Source: a virus. From it: 45,147 nucleotides of DNA. The notes below the pieces were generated by a model. It saw only the letters and a program-made list of their open reading frames with translations, had not been told where the DNA came from and did not search any database. The stretch lies in IMG/VR virus record IMGVR_UViG_3300010311_000419; one strand, given 5' to 3'. A program made the translations under genes and the position numbers. Below are positions 17,059 through 36,644 of this stretch, one piece after another (position 1 is the stretch's first letter; the number at the start of each line of letters is the position of its first letter).

Positions 17059-18216
17059 TTACTCTCTGGTTGCTTTCCTCCCTGCGAAATCTTCCCACCG
17101 CTTTACGATCACGTCGCAATACCCTGCATCAAGTTCCATCATGTAGCACTTGCGATTGAGCTGCTCGCAAGCGATGAGTGTTGAGCCGGAGCCGCCGAAG
17201 GGGTCAAGCACCAGCGTGTTGCTCATGGAGCTGTTCATAATGGGGTACGCCAAAAGCGGGATGGGCTTCATGGTTGGGTGATCGCCGTTTTTCTTAGGCT
17301 TGTCGAACTCCCAGATGGTGGTTTCCTTGCGTCCGCTGTACCACTGGTGCTTGCCGCTTTTCTTCCAGCCGTATAGCACAGGCTCATGCTGCCACTGATA
17401 CGGGGAGCGCCCCAGCACCAGCGACTGCTTTTTCCAGATACAGCAGCCGGACAAATAAAAACCGGCATCCGAAAAGGCTCTCCTGAAATTCAGCCCTTCG
17501 ATGTCGGAATGAAAAACATATATGCTGGCGTCGTCTGCCATGACTGCTTCGGTATTCTGGAACGCTGCCAACAGGAAGCTGTAAAAAGCATCGTTTGCCA
17601 TGTTGTCGTTCTTGATTTTCCCGGCACTGCCTTCATAGTTCACATTGTAGGGCGGGTCGGTCACGACCAGATTCGCCTTCTTGCCATCCATCAACCGCTC
17701 CACATCTTCACGCTTCGTACTATTTCCACAAAGCAAGCGGTGATCGCCAAGTATCCACAAGTCGCCGGCCTTGGTAATTGGTTCTTCCGGTGTCTCGGGC
17801 ACATCGTCCTCGTCCGTCAAACCGGTGTTCATATCCAAATCCATGCCAAAATCCGCTAAGTCAAATCCCAAAGCTTTGAGCTCCGACAACTCCCACTCGT
17901 TCGCCAACATGTCAAAATCCCAATCGCCCGCCATGCCACGTGGAGCATTATCCACAAGGATGAATCGCTTGCGTTGCTCCGCCGTTAGATTAGATGCCTT
18001 GACGATCCAACCGTCCGGGACATCTTTCATACCCAGCTCTTTGATTGCGCGATACCTCATATTGCCGCCGAGTATAATACCTTCATCATCAACAACTATT
18101 GGGCGGAGCGTCATAAACTCCGGATCACGTTTGATTGATTCGCACAATTTTTTGAACGCTTCATCCTTAATTATTCTTGGGTTCTTCGAATTAGCTTTGA
18201 TGTCGGATAAATTCAT
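17059..18216 (-). CDS. ParB-like nuclease domain fused to DNA methyltransferase (N6-A / N4-C class)
   Basis: N-terminal ParB-like segment; VTDPPYN (motif IV) and DPFGGSGST (motif I); GGAGG RBS. Confidence 0.8.
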   Translation of the reverse strand: MNLSDIKANSKNPRIIKDEAFKKLCESIKRDPEFMTLRPIVVDDEGIILGGNMRYRAIKELGMKDVPDGWIVKASNLTAEQRKRFILVDNAPRGMAGDWDFDMLANEWELSELKALGFDLADFGMDLDMNTGLTDEDDVPETPEEPITKAGDLWILGDHRLLCGNSTKREDVERLMDGKKANLVVTDPPYNVNYEGSAGKIKNDNMANDAFYSFLLAAFQNTEAVMADDASIYVFHSDIEGLNFRRAFSDAGFYLSGCCIWKKQSLVLGRSPYQWQHEPVLYGWKKSGKHQWYSGRKETTIWEFDKPKKNGDHPTMKPIPLLAYPIMNSSMSNTLVLDPFGGSGSTLIACEQLNRKCYMMELDAGYCDVIVKRWEDFAGRKATRE

Positions 18217-19651: not shown

Positions 19652-20743
19652 TCACACCTCCGTGGATCGAATCGGCATTATGTAATGCGAGGCGTTGCCA
19701 TCTTCCAACCGCATAATCTCCGCTGGCGTGCCAAGCCGTATTGTCAGATCGCTGCTTTTAACGTGTTGCGCGGATTCCAGGAAGTAGTCTGGGTTATATG
19801 CGATTTTCAACGCCGGCCCTTCAAACGCGCACGGGACAGATACGTTCATTGCGCCTTTGCCGGTAGAACGCGCGGTGAACACGAGTTCTTTGTTTGCTAC
19901 ACTCATCAACACGCTTTCCTTTGCCTCAGCGGTAACCACGCGGGCGAACTTGACAGTCTTTATCAGCGCGTCACGGTCTACGGTTACGGTTGTTTTGTGC
20001 ATTGCGCCAATCACGCGCCGATAATCTGGATATTGGAGATCGAGCTTGCGGATGATAACCTTGGTGTCCGGAGATTCTATCCCGAACGAGGTGATATTAT
20101 TGTATAACCTCACGAGCGCCGGATAGCGCTTCAGGAATGAGAGGAATATTTTCGCCCCGCCAAGTGGTATCGTGAACGCCTCGATGTCCGGGATTGGTTG
20201 CGCGGTGTCGATTGTCGCAAGCCTGAACCCGTCCGCCGTGACGAACCGGAGATGGCCGCCAACGCTTTCGAAGTGTAGCCCGTTCAACGCGCGCATCATT
20301 GGATCGGCGGCTATCGCATAGATAACGCGGTCAATCTCGCTTGAGAGTGTCGGGATGAGTTCGATCGGTTCAGCCGTTGAATCGAATATCAGCGCCGGAA
20401 AGTCTTCTGGGTCGAGCATTGGGATGTTTGCGACTCCGCCGTTGCTGTACACGTCAAGCGTCGCTTCGTTTTCTTGCTTGATGTTCAGCTGAGCGCTCGG
20501 CGCGTTTTTGGCGATCTCAAAGAGCGTCTTGGCGTCCACGGCGGTCTTGCCCGGCGATTGCGCGCTCGCCCCTTCGAGTTTGATCCGTATCGATGTTTCC
20601 ATATCCGTTGCGTACAGGTATACGGCATCACTGCATTCGATCAGCACGCTTGATAGGATCGGCTTAATCGCCTTTGCCGGCGCAACGGATACAATGTTCG
20701 TCATCGCATTTTCGAGAGTTTTCTTGTCAACTGTAAATTCCAT
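19652..20743 (-). CDS. dnaN: DNA polymerase III beta sliding clamp
   Basis: ~363 aa; NGLHFE...FVTADGFRLA-type clamp motifs; GGAGGGG RBS before ATG at 20743. Confidence 0.75.
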   Translation of the reverse strand: MEFTVDKKTLENAMTNIVSVAPAKAIKPILSSVLIECSDAVYLYATDMETSIRIKLEGASAQSPGKTAVDAKTLFEIAKNAPSAQLNIKQENEATLDVYSNGGVANIPMLDPEDFPALIFDSTAEPIELIPTLSSEIDRVIYAIAADPMMRALNGLHFESVGGHLRFVTADGFRLATIDTAQPIPDIEAFTIPLGGAKIFLSFLKRYPALVRLYNNITSFGIESPDTKVIIRKLDLQYPDYRRVIGAMHKTTVTVDRDALIKTVKFARVVTAEAKESVLMSVANKELVFTARSTGKGAMNVSVPCAFEGPALKIAYNPDYFLESAQHVKSSDLTIRLGTPAEIMRLEDGNASHYIMPIRSTEV

Positions 20744-20964
20744 AGTCCCCTCCAATGTAGTTTTCGATTTTAAGGCTGTTTTTAGCCCCTACGGGCGACG
20801 TTCGGGTTGAGTTGCGAGTGTTTTGTCACGGCGGATTTTATCGCGCGTTTTGGGGCCGTTTAACGCGTTTTGCTCTTCGTCATCCCCGGATGCCCGAAGC
20901 AACGCCGCGATAATCATGCCGATCGGCGCGCCGATGAATATGCCGATGAGGATGCCGGCGAGCA

Positions 20965-21372
20965 TTAGAACGGAACCTCGTCTTCGTTGGATAGTATTGG
21001 CGGGACAAGCGGCTCTTCGTCGAACGTCTCGGACTTGGTTTGCTCACGGTCTCGCGTGGATCGGGGCAAGAACTCGAACCGATCCATGATCACGTCGGTC
21101 GAGTTGCGTTTTGTCCCGTCTTGCGCCTCGTAGGTGTTGGTGCGGATGTGACCTTCGACGATGAGGCCGGTTCCTTTGGCGAAGTAGTTGCTGATCGTGT
21201 CGCATACCTTCCCGAACGCGACCACACGGAGCCAATCGGTTCCGGGGTTATCATTGTTCTTGGTTTTTGGCCGGCTTACACCGAGCGAGAAGTTCGCGAC
21301 GGGATCCCCACTCGGTAGATATTTAATTTCCGGATCGCGGCCGATGTAGCCGCTGACGATGATTTTATTCAT
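20965..21372 (-). CDS. ssb: Single-stranded DNA-binding protein
   Basis: OB-fold-like N-terminus and acidic C-terminal tail ending DEVPF. Confidence 0.8.
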   Translation of the reverse strand: MNKIIVSGYIGRDPEIKYLPSGDPVANFSLGVSRPKTKNNDNPGTDWLRVVAFGKVCDTISNYFAKGTGLIVEGHIRTNTYEAQDGTKRNSTDVIMDRFEFLPRSTRDREQTKSETFDEEPLVPPILSNEDEVPF

Positions 21373-21748
21373 TGATTTTCCTCCCTCCGAATTCCGTTAT
21401 AACATTGAGCTTTGTATGCTTTCTGCCCGTGATGGCCGCGCTCACGACCATCGGGCAGCACCATTTGTCGTTTTCAAACACGATGCCTTCCAGGGCGTCG
21501 ATTAAAATCTTCAGCATATTATTTGGATCCGCAAAACGTTTGTTTTTGAATTCGAACCCAATTACGAGATAGAAGAAGTTCCCGGCCGGCAGTATCTTCC
21601 AACGCGCCCGCTTCGCCGCTTGTTTGGCGCATATTTTAGCGAGCTCGACAAACGCGCGCGCTTCGGCATCGAGGTAGAGCCGCCCGTTTTGCGAGCGCTT
21701 GAAGTAATGGTTCACGCTCGGTGGGAGATCGGGGATTTCGATGATCAT
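21365..21748 (-). CDS. rusA: RusA-family Holliday junction resolvase
   Basis: MIIEIPDLPPSVNHYF start; ATG overlaps upstream stop as ATGA; track N-terminal extension rejected. Confidence 0.75.
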   Translation of the reverse strand: MIIEIPDLPPSVNHYFKRSQNGRLYLDAEARAFVELAKICAKQAAKRARWKILPAGNFFYLVIGFEFKNKRFADPNNMLKILIDALEGIVFENDKWCCPMVVSAAITGRKHTKLNVITEFGGRKINE

Positions 21749-22302
21749 CCCTTTCCCAGCTCCTTTATCGGCGCTGTGGCCTTCCCGGCGATCTCTCGCG
21801 CGAGATTGTTCACGAACGCTATCGCCATCGGGTTGTTGGTTTGAGTTGCCGCCTTCTCCCGTTGCGCGAAGCTGCCGTATATCCGCATAAAGTGCGCGCG
21901 GGTCGGCATCAGCGTGTTCTCCGTGAGGTCGCATAGCGTTCCCCAGCCGATGGAGTTCTTCGCCGCTTCCAGCTTCCAATCATCGTATGTTGGCTCGGAG
22001 TAGTAACCATATCGCGAGATATCGCGGTACACGATACCCCACGCTTCCTCTGCGCTGAGCTCCGGGTGTTGCTGTTCGCGCATCGCGTTCACGCGTTCCC
22101 ACAGGTCGGCGGGTACGGGGGCGTATTTGCTCGTTCTTACATAATCATCCACCGCGGCTTTGAGTTCATCATCCGTCATATCGTTCAGCACGGAGTACCA
22201 CGCTTTGAGCACTTCTTTGTTGCTCGTAATGCCGCGGAGCTTTTCGTAAACGGTTCCGAGCAGCATCATTGCCTCGGTGAACACTTGCTTACTTAACGCC
22301 AT
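21745..22302 (-). CDS. Hypothetical protein of the replication module
   Basis: 185 aa ORF translationally coupled to rusA; no motif recognised. Confidence 0.4.
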   Translation of the reverse strand: MALSKQVFTEAMMLLGTVYEKLRGITSNKEVLKAWYSVLNDMTDDELKAAVDDYVRTSKYAPVPADLWERVNAMREQQHPELSAEEAWGIVYRDISRYGYYSEPTYDDWKLEAAKNSIGWGTLCDLTENTLMPTRAHFMRIYGSFAQREKAATQTNNPMAIAFVNNLAREIAGKATAPIKELGKG

Positions 22303-23218
22303 TCTTTATCGCCTCCTCCGCCTGCGCTTCCTCCCAGAATGCCTTTAGCCCCGCGAACTTCTGCGCGTTAGTATCCCGGTTGTCATAGTTTCCTTCGAGT
22401 ATCTTTTGAAGGTTCGCGGGTTTGAATATCCAATCGAATCCAGCCTTGAACGATTTTGCGCGACCAGATAAAAAATCAGAATTATTCACGCGATGGAATA
22501 GATCGTAAAAAAAACCGATATCCGGATGTTCACGCCAGCGGGCGCCCACACAATCGCGTCGCGATTTGGCCCATTCGTTCGGTTCTTGGATTTGAGGAAG
22601 GGTTGAGCAGATAGAGATGAACATCTCGTAGATATCCTGATAAGGCGTCGGGTTTGATTTCGGTTTTGGAGAAGAGCGTTTTTTCGGCTCGATGCACGTT
22701 ATATTTTCTTCTAATTCTTTAGAATCTTTCTCATCTAAAGAATTAGAAGAAAAAGTCTGTTCTGTTCTTATCTCTTCTGTTCTATTCTTATATAAGCTAA
22801 CGTTTATACTATCGTTTATACTATCGTTTATACTATCGTTTATACTATCGTTTATACTATCGTTTGTACCCCTCTTTTTATAGTATAACGGTTCCTCGTT
22901 GTTGTTTGTACTATCCTTTATACCCTCTTTTTGATAGTATAAGAGCATATATTTTCCAGCTTTTCTTTGAGTCCCTTTAGAATAAGCGAGCAGCCCGCTA
23001 TCAACTAACCTTTGCCGCGCACGAATTACGGAAGGCTCTGTGGCCCCTAACTCGGCGACGAACCGGCTGTTTGGGACGGATAGAACCTTTCTCCAGCCCG
23101 AACGGTTAAACAAATCGAGTATCTTGAAGTACATATGCACCTCAAGATGGGAGAAATGGAATTCCAAATCCATCTGCCAGAACCGATTAACAAGGTCGAT
23201 GTAGGTCATGCTCATCAC
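22289..23218 (-). CDS. Putative replication initiator (origin-binding) protein
   Basis: N-terminal winged-helix-like region; gene contains the iteron/inverted-repeat cluster, as in lambda O-type initiators. Confidence 0.5.
   Translation of the reverse strand: MMSMTYIDLVNRFWQMDLEFHFSHLEVHMYFKILDLFNRSGWRKVLSVPNSRFVAELGATEPSVIRARQRLVDSGLLAYSKGTQRKAGKYMLLYYQKEGIKDSTNNNEEPLYYKKRGTNDSINDSINDSINDSINDSINVSLYKNRTEEIRTEQTFSSNSLDEKDSKELEENITCIEPKKRSSPKPKSNPTPYQDIYEMFISICSTLPQIQEPNEWAKSRRDCVGARWREHPDIGFFYDLFHRVNNSDFLSGRAKSFKAGFDWIFKPANLQKILEGNYDNRDTNAQKFAGLKAFWEEAQAEEAIKNGVK
22704..22753. repeat. 20-bp perfect inverted repeat with 10-bp spacer in an AT-rich tract next to the iterons
   Basis: TTTTCTTCTAATTCTTTAGA ... 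TCTAAAGAATTAGAAGAAAA. Confidence 0.8.
22801..22872. repeat. Iteron-like tandem repeats: 5 perfect + 1 degenerate copy of 12 bp CGTTTATACTAT
   Basis: Read directly; encodes DSIN x5 in the initiator. Confidence 0.85.
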
Positions 23219-23309
23219 CTAATTCTTGTATTTAGTTTTTATCCGCATATATTTCACCATCTCCGTATAATAGATAGCGCCCCTCATAGGCGAGAGGCGC
23301 GTTGTTTGT

Positions 23310-24191
23310 CTATTCGGTTACCGCCGGTTCCGGTTCGGCTGGTGTAGTCGTGATATCAACCCAATCGGTTTCGTCAGCGGCCGCGAACACATCTTCGTAT
23401 TCTTTTTTGGTTGTTTCATCTTGAGTCATCGAGCGTTGGATTTCCGTGGAGAGTGGGAGATACTTCGCAAGTTGCTTAATCACGGTCTTCTTTGCCATCG
23501 CGTCGTAATCGGTCGCCCAGGGGCCGTAGTCGGGGCTCTTGGAACGTTTGCGGTACTTGTCGATATCTTGCACGCTCATCACGAGGAATGAGAAACCACC
23601 GTCTTTGAACTTCGCGATCGCGTAGTAACAATAAGCCGCGCCGCGGTTCTCCAGCGCCGGGCGGTGCATCAGCTTCGGCGTAAGTCCATATTCGTACTCG
23701 AAGGCATCGCCTCGACACACCTCGTGGACGTCGAGGGTTTGGAGCTCGCCGGAACGCCGTACTAAATCAATATATCCCTTATACCCAATTTGGAACTGCA
23801 CTTCCGTCGATTTGGTTTTGTTGTTGTAGTACGGGATGAGATACGCGTGCCCGAGGATGCCGGGTTCGAGGCCGAGCTGCGCGGATAGCATCAACGCGCC
23901 AAGAAGCGATTGCGAGGAACATTCCAAAAGTTTGGGATTCTTCCTAATTTCGGTCATCGCCACCCGTAATAGGTGGTCGCTCTTGATGTGTCGTGGGAGA
24001 ACCTTCTCAATCTCAGGCGCCATCCGCTTGAATAAATCTTGGATATTCTGATAAGGGCTTACCGCTCTGCTTTGCGCCGGCTTGATAGCTGCGGGCGCCG
24101 CGCTTCCGGTTCCCGCTGTTACCACCTGCGGGCCGAGCTTCGGAGCTTGAATAATCCTCTCTTTAATCCCGTTCATCTTTGCATCCGTCAT
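23310..24191 (-). CDS. recT: RecT-family single-strand annealing protein
   Basis: AYLIPY...VQFQIGYKGYIDL motifs; partner exonuclease upstream. Confidence 0.75.
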   Translation of the reverse strand: MTDAKMNGIKERIIQAPKLGPQVVTAGTGSAAPAAIKPAQSRAVSPYQNIQDLFKRMAPEIEKVLPRHIKSDHLLRVAMTEIRKNPKLLECSSQSLLGALMLSAQLGLEPGILGHAYLIPYYNNKTKSTEVQFQIGYKGYIDLVRRSGELQTLDVHEVCRGDAFEYEYGLTPKLMHRPALENRGAAYCYYAIAKFKDGGFSFLVMSVQDIDKYRKRSKSPDYGPWATDYDAMAKKTVIKQLAKYLPLSTEIQRSMTQDETTKKEYEDVFAAADETDWVDITTTPAEPEPAVTE

Positions 24192-25135
24192 ACCGTTTCC
24201 TCCTTCACGGTGAATCGCCGTGATTGCGATTCTGTTATGTACTGGCTATATAAATCCGGGTTGGTTTTTTCGAATAGTTTCGTATCGAAGCGTTTTGAGG
24301 CTACGTTCGCCCACTTGATAGTAAACCGCCCGACGCGGGCTCGTTCGGCGTCTTTCATCGCGTCTTTGATCTGGTTCTCGAGGTAATCTTGGGATACCTC
24401 AAGCTCCTTGATGCGCGCTTTCACGTCGATAAGTTGTTCGATGATATCCGAGTATTGCGGTGGAAGCTCCACGCTTTGGCCCGCGTTCGCGTTAGGGTAG
24501 AGGCGATTCATAATATCGCCGTGGAGCTCGGCTTTGCTCTCCGATATCGGCGGCGGGGTTTGGGTTTCTACGCAGCGCCAGAACTCCGATTCCTTCGCGA
24601 TCATCATCTCGATCAGCTCTTCGTCGCGTTCGATCTCTTTCCACTCGAACCGGTTCCCGCCGATCAGTACCGCAACATAGGCCTTCTCGGCGCCCGTGAC
24701 GGCGAGGTAGTGCGTAACTTGGATGATATATTCCTCCGGTATCTCCCCGTCCCACCACTCTTTGCTGTTCCACGCACTGGTGGTTTTGCACTCAAGGATT
24801 GCGTTCTCACCCACCACTCGGCGGTCGATGTTAGCGATCATGAATTGATGTTCCGGGTGAATCAGGATGCGGTTCACGCGTTGAACCTTCTTCCCGGTTC
24901 GCTTGGTGAACTCATCCGCAACAACCGATTCAAGCACGTTTCCCCAGTACGCGGCCTCGCCCGCTTCAGGTTGCTCGATCTCACCGCTCTTCTCGAGGTA
25001 CAGTTGCAACGGCGACTTCCACCTCGACACGCCGATCGCCGCTGCCGCGTCCGAGCCGCCTATCCCCTTCATTCTGGCGGCCTTCCATTCTTCATATGTC
25101 ATTTCTAATGTTTTAATACCAACCGCTACTTTCAT
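24188..25135 (-). CDS. YqaJ-like (lambda Exo family) recombination exonuclease
   Basis: GIGGSDAAAAIG...SPLQLY N-terminal motifs, PD-(D/E)xK-type; adjacent to recT. Confidence 0.7.
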   Translation of the reverse strand: MKVAVGIKTLEMTYEEWKAARMKGIGGSDAAAAIGVSRWKSPLQLYLEKSGEIEQPEAGEAAYWGNVLESVVADEFTKRTGKKVQRVNRILIHPEHQFMIANIDRRVVGENAILECKTTSAWNSKEWWDGEIPEEYIIQVTHYLAVTGAEKAYVAVLIGGNRFEWKEIERDEELIEMMIAKESEFWRCVETQTPPPISESKAELHGDIMNRLYPNANAGQSVELPPQYSDIIEQLIDVKARIKELEVSQDYLENQIKDAMKDAERARVGRFTIKWANVASKRFDTKLFEKTNPDLYSQYITESQSRRFTVKEETV

Positions 25136-27649: not shown

Positions 27650-29005
27650 TCAAATTTGTTTTTCTTCTGTTTGTATTTTTTCTGATTTTCTGTTAAAGTT
27701 TATTTTCAAAATAGAACGCTGCCAACCATCGCCGTGTTGAAGCATTAGTGCCTTTTTAGTGCTACAACTTATTTCCTTCCCATTTTTATCCCTGATATGA
27801 ACTGTTCCGGCGCTTTTCACCGCGATTGCGCGTCCGGTTATGCCTTTGACTTTTACAAAATCGCCAGTCATGAATCCTTCTTTGGTCTTGTTGCGACTGC
27901 GATGACCTCTTGCAAAGCCATGTTTGTCCGGTATAATCGTTTGTCTGTTTCCACGGCCCATTATCTTGTTTATTGTTGCGTATTGTGTTTTAACATCAAT
28001 GTGCTTATCGCACAAACCAACACAAGCAGCATCAAAATAATGTTCTTTTGGCAACCCTTGATTGTGCCTGTTGAATTTCGTTCTCCCGCCAGAAGCGAGC
28101 TCAACGTCTCCAAATTCCTCTTTGAGCTTGTTGCATAAAACCCATCGGGTTGTGTTTACGCTTGCAGCATCTTTAAGGGTCTGTTTTGCGTCCTTTATCG
28201 CCTTTTCGAAATTTGCGATCATGGTTTTGGCTTTATCGCCTTTTTGTTTTGATAAGTATTCTATATATTCTTTCGGCATCATATTGGACTTCTCTTGATT
28301 GCATTTAACGCAAGCGATTGCGAGATTATCAATGCGGTCCGTGCCGCCTTTGCTTTTCGGAATCATGTGTTCAATTTCAAGAGGAACTTTTTCAGCACCA
28401 CAATAAGCGCATTTCCTACCGTATTTTTCGAGCAAGTATTCTTTCACTTCATACCCGAATAACTTTCCATGTTGATATTCAACGCCAGACACTTCGGGGT
28501 TTGCTAACTTTTGCATATCGAACTTCACGTGTTCAACTGATACAATTTGAATAGGCGCTAATGACTTCATTTTTCTAACTAAGTTAAGAGTTGAGTATAC
28601 TCTTGAAAGCATAGAGGGTGCGAAACGCCCTTTCTTTGTGCTGTTTTTTCTATTGGCCCAACGAGCTGGTCGATACCGTGTGTTTCTGTTTCTGCGGCCA
28701 CGGCGCATTTGCGACCTGTGTTTAAGGTTATCCGCGACCGTTATTTTATGCTTCACTATTCCGGCATAACGTAAAAGTAATTTGTCTTCTTTCTCTTGAA
28801 TAACAGCGATTCCTGTTTCTTTACTTCCGGGATCAATCTTTATTTGTAATGGCTCAACCTTACAATCCTCAACTTCGTTTTTTAGGCGAATCGTAAACGG
28901 AGTGTATTTGTGTATAACTGCTTTTTTGTTTTCGAGTAACTTTCTTGCTCTCTTCTCGGAGCAAGGCATCAAAGGTTCTTTGTGTTTGTTAAGTACGAAT
29001 ACCAT
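27650..29005 (-). CDS. iscB: IscB-type RNA-guided nuclease (PLMP, RuvC-I, bridge helix, HNH, RuvC-III)
   Basis: MVFVLNKHKEPLMP start; IKIDPGSKETGIAV; RSQMRRGRRNRNTRYRPARW; CAYCGAEKVPLEIEHMIPKSKGGTDRIDNLAIACVKCNQEK; KEHYFDAACVG; ~451 aa; AAGGAG RBS. Track start at 29071 rejected. Confidence 0.8.
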   Translation of the reverse strand: MVFVLNKHKEPLMPCSEKRARKLLENKKAVIHKYTPFTIRLKNEVEDCKVEPLQIKIDPGSKETGIAVIQEKEDKLLLRYAGIVKHKITVADNLKHRSQMRRGRRNRNTRYRPARWANRKNSTKKGRFAPSMLSRVYSTLNLVRKMKSLAPIQIVSVEHVKFDMQKLANPEVSGVEYQHGKLFGYEVKEYLLEKYGRKCAYCGAEKVPLEIEHMIPKSKGGTDRIDNLAIACVKCNQEKSNMMPKEYIEYLSKQKGDKAKTMIANFEKAIKDAKQTLKDAASVNTTRWVLCNKLKEEFGDVELASGGRTKFNRHNQGLPKEHYFDAACVGLCDKHIDVKTQYATINKIMGRGNRQTIIPDKHGFARGHRSRNKTKEGFMTGDFVKVKGITGRAIAVKSAGTVHIRDKNGKEISCSTKKALMLQHGDGWQRSILKINFNRKSEKIQTEEKQI

Positions 29006-29351
29006 ACAGGTATCACTCCTTTTATTTACAGCCCGAAGGCTTGCGCTTACGCGCCTTGTAACGCGAGGCATATGCCTCGTCTCTCCTCGACAATGTTATA
29101 ATGCCTTTTTACGAGCCAATCACTTGCGTACCTTCCGTGTTTACAATCGCATGTTTAGACTGGTTCGACAGAGCAGCCGGCTGGAGAAGCACCTGCTGGT
29201 GTCATGAGCAAAATAACGTAGGTCTCTAAGACCTTAGTCTGGACCCGCTTTGTAAATAGATAAGTTACAAACCGCTACACATAAGGTAAAATTAATCCGT
29301 GATTTATGTTACAGCCAAAAAGCAGCGGGCTTGAATGGCTTAACTCAACGG
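29006..29351 (-). ncRNA. Candidate omega-RNA / tracr-like scaffold for IscB
   Basis: Non-coding ~350 nt between array and iscB; consecutive hairpins including CGAGGC-AUAU-GCCUCG, GCGC-GUAA-GCGC (GNRA) and AGCC-UUCG-GGCU (UNCG); 29256-29264 is the exact reverse complement of 9 nt of the array repeat. Boundaries approximate. Confidence 0.5.
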
Positions 29352-29866: not shown

Positions 29867-30454
29867 TTATTCTTTTGATCGGGCTGTAACAAAAGCAGGC
29901 GTTGAAACTTCGCACGAAACAGAACAATTATTCGCGTACCGGTAAGATGGATTTCTGCTCGAGAGATCGCGCAATGCCTTTTGTTGCTCAGATGTGAGGT
30001 GAAATAAAGTAATCATGTTTGAAATCGGGAAGTATATGATCTTGGCACCGCTAAATTCGATGGATGGATAATCTTTTTCTTGGTCTCTCACCCTTATGGA
30101 TACAGGTATTTCCAAGTTTCGCAAATAGTTGCCGTATGCCTCGCCCTTGCCTTCATCTACAAACACAAGAAATACTGGGATGTTGTACTTTTCTGATATA
30201 GTCTTGTACTGGATGTAATGTTTAAAGTCGATACCTTGATCTGGATACATTTGCCGTCTTGCCTTACTCTTCACGTCCAGAATCAGCAAATCTTTCTTGT
30301 CTGGAGATGCCAGAATCCGGTCAAACGGATGAGCACCCGGCCATACTGGTTCGTATGGGATCATTTTCTTTCTGCTTTTGATATACTCATCCACCAATAG
30401 CTCTCCAAAATCACCTTTCTTGGTTTGAATTTTCTCGCGAAAAAGTTTAATCAT
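29867..30454 (-). CDS. PD-(D/E)xK-family nuclease (restriction-endonuclease-like), putative
   Basis: GDFGELLV ... PFDRIL ... LILDVKSK matches E / D / (D/E)xK spacing; ATG at 30454 is 5 nt after the upstream stop. Confidence 0.45.
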   Translation of the reverse strand: MIKLFREKIQTKKGDFGELLVDEYIKSRKKMIPYEPVWPGAHPFDRILASPDKKDLLILDVKSKARRQMYPDQGIDFKHYIQYKTISEKYNIPVFLVFVDEGKGEAYGNYLRNLEIPVSIRVRDQEKDYPSIEFSGAKIIYFPISNMITLFHLTSEQQKALRDLSSRNPSYRYANNCSVSCEVSTPAFVTARSKE

Positions 30455-31937
30455 GACACACATCACCAAGCTTTCGCAAGAAATCGGAGCTGTACTTATC
30501 CTCCTTCTCAAATCCAATAAAATAGCGTTTACATTTTGCGGCCGCCAGTAACGTGGAACCTGAACCGGCAAACGGGTCGAGAACCACTTCACCAGAACTG
30601 CTGGAGTTTTTGATTAGATATTCCAATAAAGGCTCCGGCTTCTGGCAATCGTGAACCTTATCTTGCGGGATAGCAAACTCAAGCACGTCGGGAGAAACGG
30701 GGTTGTTCAATTTTCGTTCTTTCCCGTTTGGCATCGTGCAGAACCAGATAATCTCATACTTGGAGGCATACCGTGCTTTGAAATCACACGGCGTGTGGTT
30801 ATTCTTCACCCAAGTGAGCCAGTTATCATGTACTTCAAAGTGTTTGGAGAGGATTCTTTTGAACTCGAAAGCATTTACGCAGCCGCAAAAAACGTAGATA
30901 TGAGCGTTTTCCTTGCATACCCGTTTCAACTCAACGCACAGATCATCGAAATACTCCAAGATACCCAACGAATCATCAAACTCAGGGTTGCCAGTTCTCC
31001 GGGAGGATTTGAAATCCACCCCATAAGGCGGGTCGGTGATCACAACATCAACTTCGTTATCAGATAATGATTTGATACCTTCCAAAGCATCCACACCAAA
31101 CTTGGCCTTGTTTTTCACTCCTTCGTTGAGCTGCTTGATAACGGATTCCAACCTTTTATCGCTGTACTCACCTTTGTGAATTGCCTCGAACAACTCAGCT
31201 TTCTTCTCATCCGAGATCTCCGGAGAAAGTTGCTCTTCCATCATTTTGAGCTGGCTGCGGATGCCTTTGTAGTATTCAACCTTTTCGTCCAGTTTTTTCT
31301 TGGCAGCTTTGCATCTCTCTTCTACGCAAAACCATACCATCACTTTCATCTGGTCATCCGCTTCTAATTCATACAATCCTGACGTCCGAAACCACCCCTC
31401 GGTGAAATCGCACGTTGTAATACCGCGTTCATTTTTTGGTGCAAATGTACCAAAGTTTGGTACACGGCCCTCCTGAAAAGTTTTGGCCAAAATCAGAATC
31501 TCTGCACCAATTTTTGAACGCAATGTTACGTGATTTTTTACTTTTTCCCGGCTCCACCCAATCCGCTCGCCGATCTTCTCTTGCGTGGTCCCATCATCTT
31601 GGAGCTTTGCGATCAAATCGAGCCAATCAAACAAATCCATCGGCGAGTAGGTGTCCTCGTCTTGGTTCCCGTTTATGGCGAGGGCATAGGGATCGTGGCC
31701 TTCCTCATACACAACGCACGGGACCTTATCGATGTTTAGTTCTTTAATCACGGCAAACCGATGATTGCCGTCCGCGATCAAGAATGAACCGTTGCTCTTG
31801 ACGACCGAAAGCGGGCGAGCCGGATTATAGCCGGATTCCGTGATCCGTTTCTTTATCTTCTCCAACGTGCTCGGCCGGATATCTCGAACCGGAAATGGTT
31901 TTAATCTTGTTACTTCGATCAATTCAGTAGCGTACAT
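30447..31937 (-). CDS. ParB-like (DGQHR-like) domain fused to DNA methyltransferase; paralog of 17059..18216
   Basis: N-terminal LIADGNHRFAV; VITDPPYGV (motif IV) and LDPFAGSGST (motif I); 496 aa. Confidence 0.8.
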   Translation of the reverse strand: MYATELIEVTRLKPFPVRDIRPSTLEKIKKRITESGYNPARPLSVVKSNGSFLIADGNHRFAVIKELNIDKVPCVVYEEGHDPYALAINGNQDEDTYSPMDLFDWLDLIAKLQDDGTTQEKIGERIGWSREKVKNHVTLRSKIGAEILILAKTFQEGRVPNFGTFAPKNERGITTCDFTEGWFRTSGLYELEADDQMKVMVWFCVEERCKAAKKKLDEKVEYYKGIRSQLKMMEEQLSPEISDEKKAELFEAIHKGEYSDKRLESVIKQLNEGVKNKAKFGVDALEGIKSLSDNEVDVVITDPPYGVDFKSSRRTGNPEFDDSLGILEYFDDLCVELKRVCKENAHIYVFCGCVNAFEFKRILSKHFEVHDNWLTWVKNNHTPCDFKARYASKYEIIWFCTMPNGKERKLNNPVSPDVLEFAIPQDKVHDCQKPEPLLEYLIKNSSSSGEVVLDPFAGSGSTLLAAAKCKRYFIGFEKEDKYSSDFLRKLGDVCHD

Positions 31938-32257: not shown

Positions 32258-33124
32258 TTTGTAAGTATATTATATCACATAGCATCACTCAACGCAAAAG
32301 GCTACAAAACACGAACCGGCAAACCGTGGGCGCAAACATCTATCTATGAGATGCTCCATAACAAGCGCTATGCCGGAATCTATACCTACCGCGGGAAGAA
32401 GCTCGGAAACAACAGCCACGCCAAACGCACGGATACGATAGAGGTTCCCGGCGTGATCCCGCCTATCGTATCGCCCGAGACATTCGAGCGCGTCAAGGCC
32501 CGATGGCGAACCAACATCACGCGCGCGCAAACCAAACACGCGCACATCTTAACCGGGATCATCTTCTGCGGCGTATGCGGCGCGCCGATGACCCTCACGG
32601 GCGGGCGTTATCCCAAGTATCAATGCTCGCGATGGAAGAATAACCGTGATACCCAATACGTGAGCGCAGGCGCGAAGACGGCAGATAAACGCGTGATCGG
32701 ATACGTTAAGAATATCATTCTCAACGAGCCCGACTTCGAAAAGATCGCCGAGAACTATAACAAGGAACACGCGCTATCAGATATGGCGCTCAAAAGCAAG
32801 GTCGAGGCCATCACCGCGGAACTCGCCGAAGTGAACTCCGGAATCGATAACGCCGTGAGCGCGATACTCAAAGGGATACTATCTGCCAAACTTGAAGAAG
32901 AAGTGAAGCGGTTGGAACTCAGAAAGAAGAAGCTGAACGAAGACCTCTTGAACCTCTCGCAAAGCACCGGGCGGCGCATCACGACCGAAGAGGTAAGAGG
33001 CATATACACGCGCTACGAAGAGATGCTGAACAGCGACGTAACCGAGCAACGTGCTCTTGTGCTTGATCTGATCGAGCGTGTAGAGGTATTCCCGGAAGGA
33101 TTTATGAACATCGCGCCGAAATAG
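32258..33124 (+). pseudogene. Large serine recombinase (integrase), N-terminally truncated: catalytic domain absent
   Basis: Frame open from stop at 32255-32257; ..KGYKTRTGKPWAQTSIYEMLHNKRYAGIYTY.. recombinase domain, zinc ribbon IFCGVCGAPMT...KYQCS, C-terminal coiled coil; no room upstream for the ~140-aa catalytic domain. Confidence 0.55.
32269..32297 (-). promoter_or_regulatory. Candidate promoter for the accessory operon
   Basis: Minus-strand TTGCGT (32297-32292), 17 bp, TATAAT (32274-32269); GAGGGGG RBS before ATG at 32236. Confidence 0.4.
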
Positions 33125-33285
33125 CCTAATTAGGCGCTGAGATGGTGCGGAGCCCTCGGCACCAGCCAAAAGAGCATAGTTAGGCGGTTCGGTATGGTGT
33201 TCGAGGCCGAGCCGTATATCATCGTCGCGGTCCGCCGCGTGGATTGAAACCCATAATAATTTTAGTAGCGAGTTGATAACAAAAA

Positions 33286-33328
33286 AGAACCCTCCATAAC
33301 GGCCACACAAGCCATCATGGAGGGTTCT
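33286..33328. terminator. Bidirectional hairpin terminator between convergent integrase remnant and late arm
   Basis: AGAACCCTCCAT ... ATGGAGGGTTCT 12-bp stem, A-run before and T-run after. Confidence 0.55.
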
Positions 33329-33342
33329 TCTTAGATAACGGA

Positions 33343-35220: not shown

Positions 35221-36306
35221 TCAAAGTTTGTTTAGAAAAGCAGATAAAGGTGCAGTTGGATTTTTGCAAGTATAACCAGTGTTATATATCCCTATGTATC
35301 GATAATGAAGAGGTATCATCACAACTTTGCCGGATGGTGTGAGTACTCCTCCATACCATTTGCCTCCTGCCGTTGAAGTATCTGGCCCTTGTGTGTATGT
35401 GTTAGCAACTGGATCATATATCCCTATGTATTGATAGCTATAAGGTATCATCACAACCTTGCCAGATGGCGTGAGTACTCCTCCAATCCATTTGCCTCCT
35501 GCCGTTGTAGTATCTGCCCCTTGTGTGTATGTGTCCGCTACTGGATCGTATATCCCTATGTATCGATAATGAAGAGGTATCATCACAACTTTGCCGGATG
35601 GTGTGAGTACTCCTCCATACCATTTGGCTGTTGCCGTTGAAGTATCTGGCCCTTGCGTGTATGTGTTCTCAACCGGGTCATATATCCCTATGTATTGATA
35701 GCTACCAGGTACCATCACAACCTTGCCGGATGGTGTGAGTACTCCTCCAATCCATTTGCCTCCTGCCGTTGAAGTATCTGGCCCTTGTGTGTATGTGTTA
35801 GCAACTGGATCGTATATCCCTATGTATCGATAATTATGAGGTACCATCACAACCTTGCCGGATGGTGTGAGTACTCCTCCATACCATTTGGCTGTTGCCG
35901 TTGAAGTATCTGGCCCTTGCGTGTATGTGTTCTCAACTGGATCGTATATCCCTATGTATTGATAGCTACCAGGTACCATCACAACCTTGCCGGATGGTGT
36001 GAGTACTCCTCCAATCCATTTGCCTCCTGCCGTTGAAGTATCTGGCCCTTGTGTGTATGTGTTAGCAACTGGATCATATATCCCTATGTATTGATAGCTA
36101 TAAGGTATCATCACAACCTTGCCGGATGGTGTGAGTACTCCTCCATACCATTTGGATGTTGCCGTTGAAGTATCTGGCCCTTGTGTGTATCCTTGTGCGG
36201 TTGATGATAAAGCTATATTGTGTGCTATTTCATCAACAGCTTGAGCATCATAGATGCTTAGATTGTCATACCTTTCATTCAGCGAGTATTTATTCAGCTT
36301 GTACAT
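35221..36306 (-). CDS. Tandem-repeat protein, putative receptor-binding / tail fibre component
   Basis: About eight ~44-aa repeats (YTQGPDTSTAxxKWxGGVLTPSGKVVMxP..YxYIGIYDPVxNT); ATG at 36306 overlaps upstream stop as TAATG. Confidence 0.5.
   Translation of the reverse strand: MYKLNKYSLNERYDNLSIYDAQAVDEIAHNIALSSTAQGYTQGPDTSTATSKWYGGVLTPSGKVVMIPYSYQYIGIYDPVANTYTQGPDTSTAGGKWIGGVLTPSGKVVMVPGSYQYIGIYDPVENTYTQGPDTSTATAKWYGGVLTPSGKVVMVPHNYRYIGIYDPVANTYTQGPDTSTAGGKWIGGVLTPSGKVVMVPGSYQYIGIYDPVENTYTQGPDTSTATAKWYGGVLTPSGKVVMIPLHYRYIGIYDPVADTYTQGADTTTAGGKWIGGVLTPSGKVVMIPYSYQYIGIYDPVANTYTQGPDTSTAGGKWYGGVLTPSGKVVMIPLHYRYIGIYNTGYTCKNPTAPLSAFLNKL
35270..36190. repeat. Near-identical 132-bp tandem DNA repeats (alternating variants, ~264-bp higher-order unit)
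   Basis: Stretches such as 35280-35350 and 35550-35620 are identical; limits approximate. Confidence 0.7.
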
Positions 36307-36644
36307 TATATAGTGACCTCTTTCCCGCTTATCATCACATATACTTTGCTGGCAGTCTCGCAATACCCTTTAATCCTATCTCCGGCAATTAAAACTTGAT
36401 CCATAAACGGAATCGTTATAGTGTTTTCTCCGCCTACTGCAGGTAGCGGATAATCCTTCACCAGATAATAGTCTGTACTCCCACTGTAAATAACAAGAGA
36501 TACTTTTTTAGCTGCTGTGTCTATGTTGCAGAACGTGACCGCCTTTATGAACCTCAACTTGCCAGAAGGCACTGCGTCTGCATCGATATATCCCAATGTG
36601 TCTGGTAAAAAACCTATCGCGAATCGTTTTGCATCCGTTGCCAC
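36306..36644 (-). CDS. Hypothetical tail-fibre-region protein (112 aa)
   Basis: ORF track; coupled to downstream repeat protein. Confidence 0.4.
   Translation of the reverse strand: MATDAKRFAIGFLPDTLGYIDADAVPSGKLRFIKAVTFCNIDTAAKKVSLVIYSGSTDYYLVKDYPLPAVGGENTITIPFMDQVLIAGDRIKGYCETASKVYVMISGKEVTI

Follow-up and report, generated by a model that had tools for sequence, protein, structure and literature searches.

A probable replication origin inside the initiator gene of an uncultivated phage, with iterons, an AT-rich tract and a palindrome

In the virus record IMGVR_UViG_3300010311_000419, a stretch of 45,147 nucleotides that we call the window, the gene for a putative replication initiator carries an ordered set of DNA repeats at 22704-22944. 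Judging from sequence features, we consider it probable, at roughly 80%, that this element is the theta-type replication origin of the phage, an 'origin within the initiator gene' of the lambda, SPP1 and RepA_N kind. The reading draws on the anatomy of the element, its non-randomness, the domain layout of the encoded protein, the conservation of the layout at the DNA level and the compensatory evolution of a palindrome. The design is already known and is well supported here, and the current view of phage replication is unchanged. In the coding direction (the minus strand of the window), an inverted iteron, an A-tract and a direct iteron occur in this order twice, followed by a five-unit iteron array, a TATATA box, a purine-rich AT tract and the palindrome. 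This element extends further than first described: the first-pass annotation gave 22704-22872, which holds except for the upper limit, as the repeat system reaches 22944.

Tandem Repeats Finder reported a period-12 array at 22797-22869 (6.1 copies, 96% matches, score 132) and no comparable short-period array elsewhere in the window. The perfectly periodic part covers 65 nt (22801-22865); read on the coding strand, it comprises five complete GATAGTATAAAC copies and 5 further nt, in agreement with the 12-bp array that the first-pass annotation had described. The five perfect tandem iterons (22802-22861, minus strand) are 12 nt each, about one helical turn, and translate to five DSIN tetrapeptides. 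As had been noted, the whole array is inside the initiator open reading frame (ORF) at 22289..23218(-). Just before the perfect units lies a half-conserved unit, AGGGGTACAAAC (22862-22873, minus strand), read from the sequence, in which only GTACAAAC is kept. In a scan of the window, all iteron matches with at most one mismatch were confined to 22802-22915. With up to two mismatches allowed, 11 matches were found against 2.75 expected, a number that none of 100 shuffles reached, and the motif scan found no second iteron cluster in the window.

Two composite units precede the array in the coding direction. They are copies of each other, 54 nt apart, and correspond to a family of 39-nt direct repeats (D1; 22850-22888 and 22904-22942, 82% identity). 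The left arm of the first composite unit is inverted iteron copy 1 (22933-22944, plus strand; GATAGTATAAGA on the plus strand and TCTTATACTATC on the coding strand, where LLYY is encoded), which faces the A-tract CAAAAAGAGG. This unit also holds a degenerate direct iteron with three mismatches, GAGGGTATAAAG (22916-22927, minus strand), and a direct iteron with one mismatch, GATAGTACAAAC (22904-22915, minus strand). In the second composite unit, the left arm is inverted iteron copy 2 (22879-22890, plus strand; CGTTATACTATA on the coding strand), and AAAAAGAGGG follows it. The array edge pairs with this second copy in an inverted repeat at 22799-22812 / 22880-22893. The 10-12-nt iteron motif is therefore also present in inverted orientation and in another reading frame, encoding LYY or LLYY and not DSIN.

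The setting is AT-rich, as previously described. The GC content is 0.28 across 22700-22899, the most AT-rich 200 nt of the region, against approximately 0.5-0.58 in the flanks. The array and the palindrome had been described as immediately adjacent, which does not hold, as a gap of about 47 nt (22754-22800) with the TATATA box and a purine-rich stretch separates them. The TATATA box (22789-22794, the same on either strand) is 3 nt past the array. The 35-nt purine-rich AT tract, AGAATAGAACAGAAGAGATAAGAACAGAACAGAC (22754-22788, minus strand), is a putative DNA-unwinding element with AGAACAG-type repeats, approximately 70% AT and 72% purine on the coding strand; Tandem Repeats Finder detected a period-5 array at 22756-22788 within it. 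The 43-nt spacer after the iterons is likewise 70% AT and 72% purine. Promoter and terminator scans gave no promoter- or terminator-like site inside the element, and Rfam and tRNA scans gave no match in the region.

The palindrome spans 50 nt, with the arms at 22704-22723 and 22734-22753 and the coding strand reading TTTTCTTCTAATTCTTTAGA / TGAGAAAGAT / TCTAAAGAATTAGAAGAAAA. The 20-nt arms are 100% complementary around a 10-nt loop, exactly as the first reading had it. This is the sole perfect inverted repeat of at least 14 nt with a loop of at most 60 nt in the window, and equally long arms appeared in none of 500 mononucleotide shuffles. Folded as single-stranded DNA, the palindrome has an energy of -17.4 kcal/mol (z = -7.3).

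To compare the element among relatives, we used a protein search, which returned 59 homologues, all uncultivated, and the DNA of relatives obtained from 7 homologues by protein look-up, 29 IMG/VR loci, 15 genome loci and 12 metagenome loci. In the close clade, six distinct variants of the palindrome arms were found over 42 loci, every one perfect for at least 16 nt. In an alignment of five variants, 6 of the 20 pairs are altered in both arms, and no pair has changed on a single side. The paired cells amount to 92%, compared with 52-60% when the partner is slid, and the observed covariation score was reached by none of 500 shuffles. The two compensating changes in locus L002 leave the encoded amino acids unaltered (TCT to TCC and TTA to TTG). 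By these alignments, the palindrome is under compensatory evolution. Among distant relatives, most types have shorter palindromes 36-55 nt after the array, for example GTAGATAC-TAAC-GTATCTAC (6 of 500 shuffles) and GGATGTTGC-TGTC-GCAACATCC (1 of 500).

Compensatory changes that keep pairing are also the classic signature of RNA structure, and the covariation of the palindrome would fit a hairpin in the mRNA equally well. The palindrome, and only this part of the element, could then act in the initiator mRNA, for example in RNase III cleavage, translational pausing or mRNA stability, and not as origin DNA. The predicted RNA fold is strong (-23.9 kcal/mol, z = -6.3). All 11 changed cells in the alignment are full Watson-Crick swaps with no G-U intermediates, which argues for DNA, weakly given only five variants. 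The fixed position of the palindrome past the array, in the relatives and in lambda, fits an origin layout, and a terminator-like T tract was not found at the palindrome. We consider the RNA explanation improbable, and prefer a palindrome that belongs to the origin.

Beyond the palindrome, the layout of the element is kept in relatives while its sequence changes. The nearest genomes were assembled from anaerobic digesters and belong to Thermotogae/Thermotogota, and the remoter ones are from Bacteroides heparinolyticus, Bacteroidales and Muribaculaceae. We found four iteron types, GATAGTATAAAC, GGTAAGTAATCA, GTCCAACTAAAC and ACTAATCATGAT, each paired with its own type of initiator N-terminal domain (N-domain). 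Upstream of the array, every iteron type also carries an inverted copy, and the positions of these copies match. In the A type (GATAGTATAAAC), the inverted and direct copies are at gene positions 275/304/329/358, and in the B type (GGTAAGTAATCA) at 297/324/351/378. The types of the C-terminal domain (C-domain) recombine independently of the N-domain/iteron pair. For instance, protein P0005 is 37% identical overall with a near-identical C-terminus, and loci L023, L024 and L065 are mosaics.

The distant arrays, from Thermotogota, Bacteroides heparinolyticus, Bacteroidales and Muribaculaceae loci, have 5-6 units of 11-12 nt and start about 270-480 nt (most 270-350) past the start of the protein match, which is near the start codon. 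Their units are mutually unrelated (ACCTAAACTAGA, GAGGTAAGTAAA, ACAGTAGAAACG, AACACAAAGGT and CAAGGTAACTCT). The period is 11 in the Muribaculaceae and Bacteroidales relatives, and these arrays cannot encode a peptide repeat because 11 is not a multiple of 3. TATATA and short repeats of the AAGA(C) type follow the array in 8 of the 10 relative types examined, in all three frames and encoding different peptides. The tract is kept as DNA in phages of both Thermotogota and Bacteroidota and may be a shared unwinding or loading signal that is independent of iteron specificity. Loci L034, L035, L037, L038 and L049 have TATATA plus AAGAC or TAAGAC within 100 nt after the array, a pattern comparable to 22754-22794 in the window.

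With the layout kept, the frames and periods varying and the palindrome covarying, these comparisons show that selection is on the DNA or its transcript and not on the encoded peptide. This bears on the explanation that the array merely supplies a flexible DSIN linker through a low-complexity repeat prone to slippage, has no function in cis and lies next to an incidental palindrome. The array region does encode a linker predicted to be disordered, its in-frame units translate to a clean repeat of a tetrapeptide, and the unit number varies between assemblies. Against this, the iteron motif recurs inverted and out of frame with other residues encoded, the 11-nt periods are incompatible with a peptide repeat, the TATATA/AAGAC tract is kept in all three frames, the ordered layout recurs with unrelated repeat sequences, and the palindrome is upheld by compensatory and partly synonymous changes. 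A mere linker repeat is thus very unlikely.

By its PHROG matches, the gene around the element encodes a phage replication initiator. The gene is at 22289-23209 on the minus strand and encodes 306 amino acids from the ATG at 23209; the ORF list gives 309 amino acids from a GTG at 23218. The ATG is probably the true start, since AGGTGA precedes it and the homologues begin there. Among the PHROG profiles, the protein matched over its full length phrog_19658 'replication initiation protein', a family of initiators from uncultivated phages (E 1.4e-33; amino acids 4-286 to profile positions 1-257 of 283) and the O-like phrog_345 (5e-16), and its C-terminal part matched phrog_10469 'DnaD-like helicase loader' (5.6e-23). 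The Pfam families PF09681 (phage replisome organizer N-terminal) and PF14297 (Lin1244-like N) do not match the window protein. Either family is present in some homologues that align to only 21-45% of the query, which suggests domain shuffling.

We modelled the protein by AlphaFold2 with a 51-sequence alignment (domain limits in the 309-residue numbering). The N-domain (amino acids 1-95) is predicted as a winged helix in the order helix-helix-strand-helix-helix-strand-strand with pLDDT >90, amino acids 97-181 form a disordered linker with pLDDT <50, and amino acids 190-308 form a confident helical C-domain. The origin-like DNA corresponds to nucleotides 275-515 of the gene and the linker-encoding stretch to nucleotides 289-543, so that only the outermost inverted iteron (gene nucleotides 275-286) falls just upstream of the latter. 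Because such a linker accepts almost any peptide, its DNA is free to evolve as a cis-element. A phmmer search against PDB sequences gave spurious enolase-superfamily matches only. In two other searches, the C-domain had no solved-structure match among the top matches, as the N-domain dominated both.

The repeats are in a transcribed gene that precedes those for the loader, RusA, SSB and DnaN, a location that would also suit operators for autoregulation or handcuffing by the initiator of its own operon, with the true origin elsewhere. Plasmid initiators that bind iterons commonly autoregulate. Autoregulatory sites, however, usually overlap promoters, and the region has no promoter-like site. 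The window contains no other iteron cluster and no similarly structured AT-rich region was noticed in it, and the adjoining AT-rich tract and palindrome fit an origin layout, as in lambda. Operator and origin roles are also not mutually exclusive. We therefore give only a very slim chance to operators with an origin elsewhere. A packaging (pac) or partition (centromere-like) site recognized by a winged-helix protein, by analogy with TubR/tubC or the pac sites of small terminases, is hardly credible: 12-bp direct-repeat arrays bound by winged-helix proteins are centromeres in some plasmids and prophages, and TubR is among the weak profile matches to the N-domain, but the array is in a gene for a replication initiator whose C-domain is DnaD/O-like and whose neighbours include a loader-like gene, SSB and DnaN, the terminase and portal genes lie some 6 kb away, and no partition NTPase is adjacent.

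Several points, besides the compatibility of the palindrome with RNA, weigh against the site being the origin. Initiator binding, unwinding and origin activity at the site are inferred. The protein has no Pfam match even at E up to 10, no specific solved relative in the PDB searches, and no detectable homology to lambda O (hhalign of the 51-sequence profile, probability 0.3%; no Pfam Phage_rep_O). The loader call for the downstream 185-residue product is weak, as it hangs on one PHROG match at 6e-8. The linkage of N-domain and iteron types could reflect their physical adjacency, as they are less than 100 nt apart. The palindrome is not universal, as the L007/L012 type has no significant palindrome after the array. 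The GC-skew check that the first-pass annotation had proposed gave no switch at the site; this is uninformative with nearly all genes on one strand.

If the site is the origin, initiation may proceed as follows. Dimers of the initiator would bind the two dyads, in which an inverted and a direct iteron converge on an A-tract, through their N-terminal winged helices. More initiator copies would occupy the five tandem 12-nt iterons, approximately one per helical turn. The nucleoprotein complex would bend and strain the DNA, leading to melting of the TATATA box and the AT-rich, purine-rich tract. Both the candidate helicase loader encoded by the next gene and the replicative helicase of the host would be recruited by the C-terminal domain. 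On the far side of the unwinding element, the palindrome would act as DNA, either by extruding as a hairpin or cruciform or by offering a symmetric site for binding, and could bound the bubble or aid helicase or primase loading. In lambda ori, it corresponds to the palindrome right of the AT-rich tract. We infer each of these steps, from initiator binding and melting to loader recruitment and the role of the palindrome, from the arrangement of the element and the protein.

The lambda ori sits midway within gene O (PMC3349717, PMC7466680). We re-examined lambda (NC_001416) with the same tools as the window. Its O gene has four annotated iterons, then the A-rich tract ACAAAAGACACTATTACAAAAGAAAAAAGAAAAGATTATTC and then the inverted repeat GTCAGAGAATTC-TGGC-GAATCCTCTGAC, and P follows. 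The order of iterons, A- or AT-rich tract and palindrome is the same in both phages, and so is its place in the initiator gene, between a DNA-binding N-domain and a loader-binding C-domain, activities that are predicted for the protein here. The next gene overlaps the initiator stop in both cases (P in lambda, the 185-residue loader-like gene here). For a lambda-type cluster of at least four putative initiator-binding sites within the ORF and between the domains, the window has five perfect and about five degenerate or inverted iterons at 22802-22944, as well as the AT-rich tract and the palindrome. The details differ. Lambda has four iterons of 18-19 bp, each with an internal palindrome, spaced 20-24 bp, whereas the phage here has five head-to-tail 12-nt units and two separate inverted/direct dyads. 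The palindrome here also exceeds that of lambda in length and is perfect, with 20-nt arms around a 10-nt loop against 12-nt arms and a 4-nt loop in lambda. The earlier description of the site as 'lambda O-type' is thus right for the architecture, with the same element order inside the initiator gene, and does not extend to membership of the lambda O family, as homology to lambda O is undetectable. The likeness is one of architecture and probably of mechanism, not of family.

The Bacillus phage SPP1 is comparable in that direct repeats for the origin-binding protein (G38P, the 'replisome organizer') are in its own gene and the loader gene (G39P) is next. Its oriL lies within gene 38 beside an AT-rich unwinding element (PMC6316719). 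SPP1 differs by its own DnaB-type helicase (G40P) and a second origin, oriR; neither counterpart was seen in the window, and tblastn gave no match to SPP1 or a Bacillus phage. In the Stx lambdoid phages 933W and P27, six iterons are present instead of four, and the extra copies matter for replication (PMC7466680). The iteron number there varies between related origins (4 or 6) as it does here (5 or 6), although the protein family and iteron type are different and the variation here may partly be an assembly artefact.

RepA_N initiators of plasmids and satellites, for which we compared pSK41/pTZ2162 RepA and Vibrio PLE RepA, share the two-domain organization, with a winged-helix N-domain, which binds iterons in RepA_N and is predicted to do so here, and a C-domain that is host-specific in RepA_N. 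Weaver et al. (2009) are said to have placed RepA_N origins inside repA. The composite units here, TTATACTAT-AAAAAG...-GATAGTA, resemble RepA_N iterons, which are inverted repeats converging on a poly-A tract (PMC7145576). The two units of this form in the window are TTATACTATC-AAAAAGAGG...GATAGTACAAAC and GTTATACTAT-AAAAAGAGGG...GATAGTATAAAC. The Pfam RepA_N family (PF06970) did not match the initiator, and a PDB profile search with the N-domain reached E values of only 0.016-0.022 (5kbj, 4pt7 and 4pql). The fold similarity to RepA_N is weak and no better than that to generic CRP/CodY winged helices. The RepA_N systems are also found in a plasmid context, in contrast to the phage here.

The first-pass annotation had suggested that the copy number of the array may vary by slippage. 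Relatives do show two, five or six units, but this is indistinguishable from assembly collapse, and slippage is weakly supported. For the iteron type of the window, five perfect units are present in every IMG/VR contig and most metagenome contigs, and a MEGAHIT contig (L001) has two. The B type shows the same split of two and five by assembly source. The two-unit versions (L001, L003 and L010), which cover two iteron types, occur only in MEGAHIT contigs from ENA. A subtype with diverged end units has either five or six (L002 and L065 vs L061, L064 and L068). Two contigs of the metagenome-assembled genome Thermotogae bacterium ADurb.Bin062 (L042 and L043; MWEM01000154/155) end exactly at the array, with the protein match starting from amino acid 122. 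The run lengths of 29-30, 65-66 and 42 nt are the minimal de Bruijn traversals for k of 21/29, 55/59 and 33, respectively; this argument has little power either way, as nearly any length fits some k. Short-read assemblies break or collapse at the array because it is perfect, and the count of five in the window may be a minimum. Several distant arrays are imperfect (73-90% matches) and are assembled unambiguously because their units differ. They suggest that 5-6 units is about right for the family.

The added value of the present case is modest: a larger ordered grammar, its conservation across phyla with changed sequence, the compensation in the palindrome and a warning for assembly. It provides a concrete origin candidate for an uncultivated phage lineage whose closest relatives are in Thermotogota genomes from anaerobic-digester metagenomes. 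To our knowledge, no phage origin has been mapped for Thermotogota hosts. The four iteron/N-domain pairs and six palindrome variants are natural specificity swaps for studies of initiator-iteron co-evolution, and the palindrome variants could help explain the poorly understood palindrome beside lambda-type unwinding elements. The conserved grammar could also serve origin annotation in metagenomic phages. A wider proposal, about which our doubts clearly exceed our confidence, has three joint parts. The palindrome would be a general, structure-selected part of initiator-gene origins, maintained by strictly Watson-Crick compensatory changes and present at the same offset in Thermotogota and Bacteroidota phages and lambda; once extruded as a hairpin or cruciform, it would guide the loading of helicase or primase or restrict the bubble; and dyad units, 5-6 units of 11-12 nt, TATATA, AAGAC repeats and palindrome would make up an undescribed origin grammar. 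If true, this grammar could predict origins and initiator specificity in uncultivated phages.

The initiator belongs to a replication/recombination operon on one strand. All of its genes are on the minus strand: YqaJ exonuclease (24188-25135), RecT (23310-24191), the initiator, the candidate helicase loader of 185 amino acids (21745-22302), RusA (within 21365-21979), SSB (20965-21372) and a DnaN-like clamp (19652-20755). The candidate loader gene overlaps the initiator stop by 14 nt and is the equivalent of lambda P by position. Its one weak match to phrog_2289 'helicase loader' (6e-8) is accompanied by better PHROG matches of unknown function. The gene is kept beside the initiator in relatives, and a more distant one (L009) has an IstB/DnaC-like ATPase at this position. 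The ORF at 21365-21979(-) has 204 amino acids from a TTG start and overlaps the 185-residue gene by about 235 nt; the RusA proteins of relatives have 124-127 amino acids. The real RusA gene probably starts near 21745, as far as the ORF and its relatives indicate. Between recT and the initiator gene is a gap of 100 nt, in which a terminator-like GC-rich hairpin of 10 pairs (23277-23300, minus strand) is followed by TATCTATTAT; the initiator may start a separate transcription unit.

A large terminase and a Mu-type portal, together with DNA methylases, mark the window as phage or prophage DNA. The ORFs that were scanned showed no phage helicase. A megablast search of the 20-26 kb part against 50,697 phage records gave no match and no annotated close relative there. 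The two DNA methyltransferases (N6_N4_Mtase) are at 17059-18216(-) and 30447-31937(-), and the former is fused to a ParB_N-like N-terminal domain.

Some features of the window are apart from the replication region. An IscB-type gene (27650-29071, minus strand) with Pfam RRXRR (4.4e-60) and HNH domains is adjoined by a HEARO / omega-RNA match at 29076-29330(-) (Rfam RF02033, 96.5 bits against a gathering score of 83). By these matches, 27650-29330 is an OMEGA/IscB element within the phage, and it sits in a lower-GC stretch (25.8-31 kb, GC 0.39-0.45). The only sizeable plus-strand ORF of the window (32351-33124) has the Recombinase and zinc-ribbon domains of large serine recombinases. Its match begins at position 48 of the Recombinase profile, which may reflect truncation of the ORF or a wrongly called start. 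Just past the ORF, at 33277-33337, is an imperfect inverted repeat of 27 nt. A tandem array at 35284-36190, with a period of 132/264 nt (6.9 or 3.4 copies, 87-94% identity), is inside the ORF at 35221-36363(-), which has faint Kelch-like and phage-lipoprotein Pfam matches only. The array probably corresponds to domains repeated within a structural or receptor-binding protein.

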